DNA from: Elusimicrobiota bacterium
GTDB taxonomy: Bacteria; Elusimicrobiota; Elusimicrobia; UBA1565; JACRDR01
Length of the DNA stretch: 39,711 nucleotides
Direction: 5' to 3'
Assembly: GCA_041694815.1 (NCBI GenBank)
Contig: JBGFSC010000041.1
Coordinates: forward strand, 1-39,711
A program made the position numbers. Below are positions 9,001 to 12,000 of this stretch, piece after piece. Within the stretch, counting starts at the first letter, position 1. Every line of letters begins with the position of its first letter.

Positions 9001-12000
9001 GGCCAAGAGCTCCTTTTCGCTCAGCGATACGACGCCCTCGAGCACTTGGAAGCTGGGGCCGTGGAAGTAGGCGGAGTAGATCGCCTCCGGCTTGACCGCG
9101 AAGGGAGCCTTCTCGGCTCGGCCCGGGGCGGCCAGCGCAGGCGCCACAGAAAGGAGGCGGGCGGAAAAATGGGTGCGCGGGCCGCCGAGCTTAAGTCCCT
9201 GCGGCGTGATGAAATCGGACTCGATGGACAGTTCACCGGACTTCTTGGCGCGGCAGCGCACCGCGATGGGCCTGTTGCGCAGCAGCTTGATCGGCAGCGA
9301 GAAGCGCACGTCCTCGAAGCCTCCGGGCAGATGGCCCGAGAGCCTACCGAGGGCCTCGGCGAAAAGCTCGAGCCCCATCACCCCCGGGACGTAGGGGACG
9401 CCCGCGATCGAATGATCCGCCAGCCATGGATCCTTCTCGAGGCTGAACTCCTTTTCCAGGACGATCTCTTCGGCCCCTTCCTGGAGGGTCCTCTCGGCAA
9501 GCAGGGCCGCGCCCTTGGGAAAAGGAACGGATTCGGGTGCCTTCGGGAGCGCCGTCACGGCGCCGCCGCGGACCATCTGAGCGTCTAAGTCCATGCGGCC
9601 CAGCGAGCCGGCCAGCAGCACCTCGCTTTCGGGGCAGCCCGAGGCGGCCTCCTCCAGCAGCATCCGCACGGCGACGGGGGGCGGCATGAAATCGACGCCC
9701 TGCGACTTGAGGAACTGCTCCACGCCGCCCCGCGTGGCCATGCCGATCTCGGCGATGGCCGTCAGGTCCACCGCGGTGGCCGCCACGCCTTGCGAGCGCA
9801 TCCAGCAAGAGAGGCCGGCCAGGAATTCGCTGGCCGCGGCGTAATCGGTCTGTCCGACGTTTCCGAAGCGGCCCACGACCGAGGAGAAGAAAACCCAGCG
9901 CTGCCCGGCCTTGGGCTTTAAATGCCGATACAGGTAATAGGCCCCGTGCGCCTTCGCCCGGAACACGGCCGCGAAGCGCTCGGGGGTCTTGTCCGCCAAG
10001 AGCTTGGATTCCTCGAGCCCCGCGGCGTGGAATACGCAGTCCGCGGAGAACGGCTTTAAGGATCTTAAGGCCGCTGCCAGCGCGGCCTCGTCGGCGATAT
10101 CCGCCGCGAGGTAATGGACCTGGGCGCCGGCGGCGCGCATGGATTCCAAGTTTCGATACAGCTCGGCGGCCTTCGCCACGCGCGAAAATTCGCGCTCGAG
10201 AAGCACCGGAGTCGCCTTGCGGGATTTATCCGCCTTGAGCTTTTCCCACATCCGCTGCTTTAAGGAGCTGAGGCCGGCCGCGTCGAGTTTCGCCCATTCG
10301 GCGGCCTCCTTCGAGAGCGGCGTGCGCCCGATGATCACCAATTTGGGCTTATAGGTCCGGGCCAGCTCCTTGGCGAGCTCGGCGCCCAGGCCCTGGCCGC
10401 CGCCCGTCACGACGACCCAGGATTTGGGGCCCAGGAAGGCGACGACGGCCGGGGGCTTGGCCGCCTTCAGGCGGAGGCCCCGACGCTTGCCTTTCTCGAA
10501 GAAGACCTCGCCGATCGGGTCGTCGCCCTGCAGCTCGGCGCACGCGGAGGAGGCCGCCTCCGCCGTTGAGAACTTGCCGCGAAAGACGAGCGCCTGCACC
10601 CGGGCCTTGGGCAATTCCTTCCGCAAGGCCTTGGCCAGCCCCGACAAAGCCGCAGACAAGGGGTGTTCGGCGCCTACGGTCAGTATCCAGCCGGAATCCT
10701 CCAGCGCCGGGCCCAGGCGTTTGGCGGCCGACAATAGCGGAAGCAGCGAGCCGGAGAACTCATTCTCAAAAGTCTTGGGGGTCGATTTATTGAAATCGCC
10801 GAACTCGAGCCCGGCCAGGCAGAGAATCCCCTGCGGCTTGGAGGCGGCCGCCTTTTCGATGGAGCTGCTGGAGGCCGAAGGCTTGAGCACGAGCGAAGGG
10901 ACCCCGGCCGCCTTCAAGGCGGCGGCGAAGGGCTTGGCCGCCGCGGCGCTCGCCGATAGTATCAGCGCGGGGCGGGTTTTTGAAAGGGGAGTTGCGGTGG
11001 TGCCAGCCTTTAGGCTGGCACCCCTTCCACGCGGCGGCAAGGGACGGTCATAAAGCTCCGGCACCCAGCGCTCGAAATGAGCGGCGGCCGCGACGGGCTT
11101 GGCCGCCTCGCGGAGGGGCGCCTCGGGGGCCGTGCCGTTGGCCGTCTGGCTCAGCACGAAGCCGATCACATGCCGCAGCGTGGGATAATCCTTGAGGGCC
11201 AGGTTCTCCTGCTTGGGGATGCCGTATTTCTCGCGGATGATGCCGATGAGCTCGGCCTGCTTGACCGTGTCGATGCCGAGGTCGGCCTCCATGTCCAAAT
11301 CCAGCTCGAGCATTTCCGCGGGGTAGCCGGTCTTCTCGCTGACCAAGGCGGTGACGGCGGCGCGGATCTCCGGCTCGCGCCCGTCCGCGGGCGCGGGTAA
11401 CGATGGTGCCAGGGATTGACTTTCGCCTAGGCGAAAGTCAATCCCTGGCACCGTAACAATACCGGAAGGCTCCGTCGGAATCTTCTCGGCGGGCGGTTCC
11501 GGGGCGGCAGGGGTCGACGAGCCTCCCGTGTTGCTCAAAACGAAGCGCACGACATGGCGCAAGGTGGGATAATCCTTGAGGGCCAGGTTCTCCTGCTTGG
11601 GGATGCCGTATTTCTCGCGGACGATGCCGATGAGCTCGGCCTGCTTGACCGTGTCGATGCCGAGATCGGCCTCCATGTCCAAATCCGGCTCGAGCATTTC
11701 CGCGGGGTATCCGGTCTTCTCGCTGACCAAGGCGGTGATCGCCCGCAGCACTTCGCCTTCTCCTAGGCTTGCGCCCACCGCGACGGGGACCCGGACGGGT
11801 TTCGGCGCCTGCGTGGCGGATGGTGCCAGGGATTGACTTTCGCCTAGGCGAAAGTCAATCCCTGGCACCTCGGAACGGCCGGCCACGGGCGCCGGGGCGG
11901 CGGCGCCCGTGGGCTCCTTGACTCGCAGGGTGTTCTGCGCCACCTCGAGCTCGGGGTTCTCCTGTCCCGAGACCTTGCGCAGCCAGCGGAGGTGGCGCGC

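Follow-up and report, generated by a model that had tools for sequence, protein, structure and literature searches.

A dispersed palindrome inserted in frame in the ACP linkers of an elusimicrobial megasynthase, and a candidate transposase for its spread

Introduction

In an Elusimicrobiota genome the same short palindrome occurs twice within the reading frame of one large gene, a megasynthase with tandem ACP domains. This arrangement raises the questions of what the repeat is, which enzyme may have moved it and why the synthase tolerates it directly next to its carrier domains. Here we describe the two copies and their host gene, trace the palindrome through the remainder of the genome, relate it to a resident transposase gene and compare the insertion sites with those of related organisms.

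Results

Two identical palindromes in one megasynthase gene

The 48-mer GGTGCCAGGGATTGACTTTCGCCTAGGCGAAAGTCAATCCCTGGCACC is its own reverse complement and thus a perfect, gap-free palindrome. In the window, by which we mean the whole stretch of 39,711 nucleotides analysed, one 48-bp copy is located at 11405-11452 in the ACP1-ACP2 linker (synthase codons ~1693-1709), and a second copy of 48 bp and identical sequence at 11822-11869 in the KS2-ACP1 linker (codons ~1554-1570); neither is assigned a strand. As the genome-wide survey's note had described, both are in frame: they lie within the open reading frame 8683-16530 on the minus strand and are translated as VPGIDFRLGESQSLAP, one directly before each ACP. 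Both copies are 100% intact, third codon positions included, and the third-position GC of the 48-mers is 47%, compared with 86% for the whole synthase gene. Folding calculations predict a stable hairpin (z-score -8.2, with 0 of 200 shuffles equally stable). An Rfam scan of the window returned a single tRNA only, and the 48-mer matches no described RNA family.

The host gene (8683-16530, minus strand) encodes a PfaA-like megasynthase of 2,615 amino acids with the domain order KS-AT-KS-ACP-ACP-KR-DH and an intact frame. Like the PfaA-type PUFA synthase, as presented in the accessible part of PMC3585217, it has its tandem ACPs strung on flexible linkers and follows the order KS-AT-ACP-KR-DH; it differs in having a second KS ahead of the ACPs, and its match to TIGR02813 (PfaA) reaches 839 bits, under the cut-off of 1010, so that it is not classed as PfaA itself. 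On the same strand, an enoyl-ACP-reductase-like SDR gene (16536-17306; PF13561, 4e-77) lies directly upstream of the synthase, a phosphopantetheinyl transferase gene (7964-8725; PF01648) directly downstream, and a carboxyl transferase gene (6388-7986; PF01039) belongs to the same gene run. PF00109 has six matches in this 97.8% complete genome; the top three all fall in the synthase, and the other three are short and weak. Because the sole strong ketosynthase matches of the genome are found here, the gene probably encodes the main fatty-acid synthase. The best named orthologues carry Elusimicrobiota titles, and a metagenome search for near relatives of the synthase yielded three loci, all distant.

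The two ACP modules (ACP1, a 213-bp repeat unit at 11526-11738; ACP2, 11142-11354; both on the minus strand) are identical at 198 of 213 bases (93%), whereas the flanks of the two palindromes have only ~3 bases in common. Joint duplication of the inserts with an ACP module is thereby ruled out. Judged by these flanks, the two insertions are independent of each other. The linkers of orthologous synthases are hypervariable, with lengths of 38-154 aa; the inserts can therefore not be sized by alignment, nor can their exact ends be fixed.

Genomic copies and their reading frames

In the 2.77-Mb genome we counted 30 copies of the 48-mer at three or fewer mismatches, 23 of them exact, whereas the reversed pattern gave no match; beyond these, one further copy is truncated where a contig ends, and there are several half copies. 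A separate gene calling placed 5 copies within genes, 3 across gene ends and 22 between genes. One gene, on contig C41 of our numbering, had been started downstream of its insert, and alignment places this copy inside the gene, so that 6 copies are internal and 21 intergenic. This agrees with the earlier count of 30 copies, six of them in genes. Besides the two in the synthase, the internal copies are found in MacB (contig C25), a membrane protein (C28), a solute-binding protein (C30) and the C41 protein, which we read as a P-loop protein from its GGGKS motif.

Owing to the perfect symmetry of the 48 bp, the orientation of insertion is irrelevant and the same three frame outcomes arise either way; all three are seen. 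One frame is open and accounts for four internal copies, another carries a single TAG (two internal copies), and the last stops after four codons and, as GARD-stop, supplies the stop codon of the three gene-ending copies. The central TAG is lost in exactly 2 of the 30 copies, and both of these lie in long open reading frames in the TAG-bearing frame (C28 and C30). At C28 this observation is not circular, because homology runs on at both sides of the element. The exact 23-bp arm had no match in 60 relatives, in genome_contigs or in metagenome_contigs. With a shorter arm of 19 bp, no match was obtained in viral_contigs and 22 single matches in genome_contigs, and the one inspected (L319) is a single TIR dimer.

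Inserts in other genes

The survey had reported that orthologues of the interrupted proteins lack the peptide, and the loci read bear this out. The MacB linker comprises 80 aa here and 62-74 aa in 25 of the 28 orthologue loci read. In the C28 membrane protein, which matches GT87 weakly, the loop measures 88 aa, against 67-74 aa in 23 of the 25 rows read (from 28 loci; the others have 86 and 59 aa, a short regex match). The insert of the P-loop protein, ~40 aa and clean, is absent from 22 of the 23 loci read (26 fetched). This protein has no Pfam match, and tandem 33-bp half copies are present at its locus; its AlphaFold model has a mean pLDDT of 87, and only residues 46-80, within the insert, fall below 50. 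By their descriptions, these three genes correspond to those in which the survey had placed in-frame inserts. Sequence comparison supports the view that a dispersed palindrome specific to this lineage has entered the reading frame of the synthase (at two sites), of MacB and of the C28 and C41 proteins. For the C30 solute-binding protein, where the survey had suspected a miscalled start, there is no in-frame ATG past the element and an upstream ATG overlaps the preceding stop, but the stretch also includes a piece of an intergenic repeat; this copy may be internal.

A related element had been proposed to remove the stop codon of an EamA gene and to fuse it to an M16 protease. The open frame is real: a single frame of 1,252 aa runs through an 84-bp relative of the 48-mer, a dimer that takes the place of the EamA tail and provides an in-frame junction to the M16 peptidase. 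In two of the four relatives that have the M16 orthologue (G005 and G001), EamA adjoins it as a separate gene with an ATGA overlap. M16 nevertheless retains its own ATG and a signal-like segment just after the element, so that separate initiation or cleavage of a polyprotein is possible.

The C41 and C28 proteins each give 24-29 matches to non-gene places of their own genome. A repeat-derived origin of the aconitase start MPGT was considered and dropped; it lies 33 bp from an element and is unlike the TIR.

A TIR dimer and a candidate transposase

Y1_Tnp (PF01797) has one match in the genome, which is over the cut-off: a gene for a 303-aa protein at 53833-54744 of contig C15. The protein scores 85.8 bits against NF047646 (REP-associated tyrosine transposase; cut-off 80 bits) and displays the motifs NHIH (HuH) and YIHLNP (Y---NP), while its C terminus matches HTH_23 weakly (E 1.5e-4, 21.9 bits, below the 24.6 cut-off). 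The gene is bracketed by 31-bp inverted repeats starting GGTGCCAGGCATCCACTTTC, one of them 42 bp upstream and the other overlapping the 3' end, and by no GTAG REPs. Over 20 bases, an arm of the 48-mer shares 17 with this transposase-flanking TIR and 19 with the 66-mer. By the match of its arms, the 48-mer is a head-to-head dimer of a TIR, an identification that is new here.

The dimers form a size series of 48, 66 and ~84 bp, in steps of one 9-bp inner unit per arm. Approximately 26 longer dimers are present in the genome, most with the resident TIR and five of a sister subfamily. In the window, a longer intergenic dimer of the 48-mer family is found at 22381-22468, its left end decayed and its right end matching the transposase TIR, and an intergenic dimer of the sister subfamily, 81 bp in length and with GGTGTCAGAC ends, at 34740-34820 (no strand assigned to either). 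Family-end matches number 158 in the genome and 5 in the reversed genome; about a dozen of them are chance matches in genes. Compared with GGGGWSAS, the TIR consensus of the majority of published cases, GGTGCCAG fits at six of eight positions and GGTGTCAG of the sister subfamily at seven of eight.

Repeats abutting the ends of the element measure 0-2 bases in all 18 stand-alone 48/66-mers and 0-3 bases in all 26 long copies, and the family thus lacks the target-site duplication by which classical DDE-transposase MITEs are recognized. Neither is it a canonical GTAG/CGTC REP or REPIN, as the flanks of the 18 stand-alone copies contain no such tag and the arm itself forms no hairpin. What we find are dispersed dimers of a TIR that flanks a resident gene, as in a TIR-repeat family. 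A loose four-base echo is visible by eye a few bases outside some sites. The flanks of the 48/66-mers are biased, position -2 being A at 28 of 36 ends and position -1 a pyrimidine at 33 of 36, which suggests a longer mobile unit or a target preference. Apart from the 18 stand-alone copies, 15 of the 33 48/66-mers lie within copies of a second repeat family, an empty copy of which is found in the window at 32638-32758 (no strand).

Homologues of the transposase occur in 72 of 80 relatives. Most of the 30 transposase loci of the order that were inspected have TIRs whose beginning resembles the motif GG[TG]G[CT]C, and TIR-dimer palindromes are present in 40 of the 80 relatives, with genome-specific interiors. 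The Y1/HUH transposase on C15, by its features of the TIRYT type, is likely to be the mobilizer of the 48-mer, and we regard it as the candidate enzyme.

Repeats at the same sites in relatives

The ACP region was inspected in a further 19 elusimicrobial genomes (L036-L053 and L006; the linkers of L005 equal those of L046 and were counted once). The peptide described here occurs in none of the 19. Seven of the 19 orthologues carry, in the same linker region, a dispersed repeat of their own genome, and these repeats belong to five unrelated families; the seven linker patterns were chosen after viewing the linkers, and the remaining 12 orthologues showed none of those seven. In this tally closely related genomes do not count as independent, and some copies have been multiplied along with duplicated ACPs. 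All three linkers of G009 hold a CGTC-tagged REP with 251 genome matches. The linker repeat of G029 has 80 genome sites, that of G015 and G019 has 62 and 10 genome matches, respectively, and that of G001 and G005 has 18 and 12; in G081 the linker contains a heptamer array with 173 genome matches. Controls for the relatives' linker repeats gave 0-1 matches. Four genome copies of one linker family are present in G013, none of them in its own linkers. Among 21 archaeal loci, one (G082) has a linker repeat, with 145 genome matches.

A second protein shows the same behaviour. In the P-loop protein of G009, an unrelated CGTC-type REP dimer is inserted in frame in the very loop that carries the insert here, and only 1-3 of 30 sampled matches of the G009 REP fall within coding-like frames. 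The MacB linker and the C28 loop of relatives contain, by eye, no recognizable repeat peptide, and same-site convergence is therefore seen in two of the four genes examined. This convergence is best read as neutral survival at a few permissive sites. A wider claim would be that miniature mobile elements settle again and again in the ACP linkers of this megasynthase family, in bacteria and archaea alike, above the intergenic rate and with repeat insertion as a main source of turnover in linker length and sequence, and that TIRYTs are active mobilizers whose TIR dimers are pre-adapted to in-frame entry into genes; we consider this speculative and doubtful. In the literature searched, we found no description of repeats in synthase linkers or in Elusimicrobiota, or of same-site insertion by unrelated families; supplements and subscription papers were outside this search, and Additional file 3 of PMC3733652, which lists intragenic targets, may include synthases.

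Discussion

In-frame insertion of a dispersed palindrome is, as a type of event, already published for the Rickettsia palindromic elements (RPEs) and for intragenic REPs, according to the accessible parts of PMC3733652 and PMC10969869. What is added here is a candidate mobilizer and the repeated colonization of the same protein sites. RPEs, as described in the same two sources, are likewise dispersed palindromes that stand in frame in unrelated genes and encode a common peptide, but RPE-1 is ~150 bp long and has nearly half of its copies in open reading frames, compared with 48 bp and 6 of 30 copies here; in addition, a candidate mobilizing enzyme is present in our case, and the likeness drawn here is one of behaviour. 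Intragenic GTAG/CGTC REPs and REPINs, as far as PMC3733652 and PMC5581495 cover them in their accessible text, resemble the 48-mer in forming dimers of 20-30 aa, in double insertions per gene, in supplying stop codons and in being tolerated in linkers and loops, whereas the 48-mer has neither a GTAG/CGTC tag nor a stem-loop monomer of 20-40 bp. Same-site insertion of REPs is given in the accessible text of PMC3733652 only for recB of two Xanthomonas species, the sites otherwise differing, whereas unrelated families recur here in the same linkers and in the same loop.

TIRtrons with dimeric TIR families have been described (PMC3733652) and assigned to TnpA-Y1 subclass 2.1 (PMC6006769), each in the part of the paper accessible to us. 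Shared with the TIRtron/TIRYT system of PMC3733652 are a long Y1 protein with HuH and Y---NP motifs, flanking inverted repeats instead of GTAG REPs and a moderately abundant TIR-dimer family elsewhere in the genome; the C-terminal HTH of TIRYTs (Bac_DnaA_C, HTH_23 or HTH_28) corresponds here to the weak match noted above. The system described here differs in its end motif, with the incomplete fit to GGGGWSAS, and in its dimer, which is perfectly palindromic, has no gap and contains an open frame. As for intragenic copies, the accessible text of PMC3733652 names GTAG and CGTC REPs but no TIR repeats, and the word Elusimicrobiota is not found there. Group 1 RAYTs are associated with only moderately abundant flanking words, as stated in the accessible part of PMC5581495. 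The 48-mer is RPE-like in effect; the class that suits it best is that of the TIR-repeat families of TIRtrons.

On the basis of these comparisons, we propose as the probable explanation that the 48-mer is a non-autonomous miniature TIR dimer of a TIRYT-type Y1/HUH transposase, which inserts blindly and survives neutrally at permissive sites. The transposase would take the 48-mer hairpin in single-stranded form and copy it to new locations, irrespective of what the genes there do; single-strand processing by HUH enzymes is established for the IS200/IS605 and REP systems (PMC6006769, accessible part). Selection would purge the copies, except for intergenic ones or those at permissive protein sites. 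The disordered ACP linkers would be sites of this kind, colonized independently by the repeat family of each lineage, and inserts may be tolerated there because a related enzyme has flexible linkers between its tandem ACPs, as reported in the accessible part of PMC3585217. The inserted peptide itself most likely has no function. An empty site in a close relative was not found, nor did the literature searched contain activity data for TIRYT proteins.

Without the resident transposase, the copies would have spread through gene conversion or through hairpin-induced replication slippage, or would have travelled as passengers, either of the second repeat family or of an enzyme since lost. Such a course would account for the 3 mismatches in 20 bases to the resident TIR, for the 15 of 33 copies that sit in a composite element and may have spread with the second repeat family, and for the slippage-like tandem 33-bp half copies at C41. 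The GGTGTCAGAC subfamily, which has no matching transposase in the 97.8% complete assembly, also speaks against the resident enzyme, and together with the mismatches it implies that another, lost enzyme may have acted. We nevertheless judge a history without the resident transposase to be unlikely, as the 18 stand-alone copies lie in unrelated flanks, including coding DNA without homology for conversion, and the end motif is common to the TIRs of transposase genes across the order. The assumption of pure neutrality is in turn strained by the two matches in ~560 bp of linker, for which P is 0.001-0.017 against the intergenic density, depending on the repeats counted, and 2e-5 against the whole genome (this genome alone); neutrality accounts for this excess only loosely. 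Two independent insertions in one genome at this P would suit true insertion hot spots, where miniature elements, HUH-type and others, are drawn to DNA that is exposed as a single strand or prone to hairpins in the ACP region with its Pro/Ala-rich sequence and tandem duplication, as would the presence of six families in 8 of 20 elusimicrobial genomes and the GC-rich hairpins that many empty linkers form. Against this, duplication of the ACP module multiplies some inserts (the linkers of G009 and G019 are near-identical), the same-loop insertion in the P-loop protein took place without a tandem repeat and fits tolerance at the protein level, and the third linker of the present synthase is empty, so that hot spots also appear improbable.

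It is very unlikely, in our view, that the inserts are kept for a function, be it ribosome pausing between domains at an mRNA hairpin or the tuning of ACP reach or product chain length by a longer linker. The full conservation of both window copies down to third codon positions and their placement just before each ACP would fit such a role, but the intergenic copies are equally invariant, which indicates recent arrival, empty linkers are equally long (73 and 66 aa in G004 versus 66 and 65 aa here), and the inserted peptides of relatives are unrelated to one another. An artefact of mis-assembly at palindromes, or insertion into dead genes, is hardly credible. At C30 the ATG that directly follows the element out of frame might stem from a single-base error; yet the repeat is shorter than a read, its copies differ in their flanks and include point variants, the frame of the synthase is unbroken over 2,615 codons and holds the only strong KS domains of the genome, and the same phenomenon recurs with other repeats in independent assemblies.

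With the 48-mer taken as a TIR dimer that was probably moved by a TIRYT-type enzyme and survived neutrally, a protein-coding palindrome is tied to a candidate enzyme of a large and little-studied subclass of Y1 transposases, and the 48-mer offers a short, invariant substrate for a first assay. For annotation, the case is a warning that repeat-derived peptides produce false homologies, as with the C41 and C28 proteins. The convergent insertions mark natural insertion-tolerant sites in the megasynthase and the P-loop protein, which may be of use in linker engineering, and they bear on how selfish DNA contributes new peptide sequence.

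Repeat dimers at gene boundaries and in relatives

The head-to-head dimers of the terminal inverted repeat (TIR), the family to which the 48-bp palindrome belongs, also lie at the ends and starts of genes elsewhere in the genome. In five cases among the long dimers (contigs C9, C19 and C22), the gene lying upstream ends in a TAG codon whose last base is the first G of the element, and in this long class TA is preferred before the element end. Members of 66 bp and 84 bp occupy gene 3′ ends at C40:8643-8708 and C20:861-944, respectively, where they encode the last 20-25 amino acids of a glycosyltransferase and of an unknown protein. 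At the other end of genes, the MPGT start of two gene calls, on C21 and C23, comes from a TIR end. The genome's single Y1/HUH transposase gene is itself bracketed by TIRs, the right one of which encodes the gene's own last codons (ESQ) and its stop (C15:54700-54744).

Among relatives, G052, G065, G066 and G076 each contain 34-52 short TIR-dimer palindromes. In genome G009, a Y1 transposase gene (L079, contig C26) has a perfect palindrome of ~60 bp on either side rather than a simple TIR. The same genome encodes a P-loop protein with an in-frame CGTC-type REP dimer (L217, C8:21700-23500), located in the same loop as the tandem insert of the P-loop protein studied here.

A second repeat family and other features

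A second dispersed repeat family consists of nested GC hairpins, with 72 end matches genome-wide; in the window it is found at 1-290, 25511-25575 and 32638-32758. The contig starts with three tandem 99-bp units of this family, and since contig C30 ends in the same unit, the sequence suggests that the two contigs join there.

Of four adjacent paralog-like genes (window 2791-6332), three encode short WD40 proteins and one an FGE-sulfatase domain; the four share a short repeat near their 3′ ends. An AT-rich imperfect inverted repeat (20083-20222; arms 36 bp, spacer 68 bp) is intergenic. Elsewhere, the gene model calls an ORF of 13,730 codons (C38:59033-100225).

Synthase orthologues in archaea

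Full-length orthologues of the PfaA-like megasynthase, with 41-47% identity, occur in Thermoplasmatota and Heimdallarchaeota assemblies (L002-L024). As judged from these orthologous sequences, there are archaea with a predicted type I fatty-acid/polyketide megasynthase.
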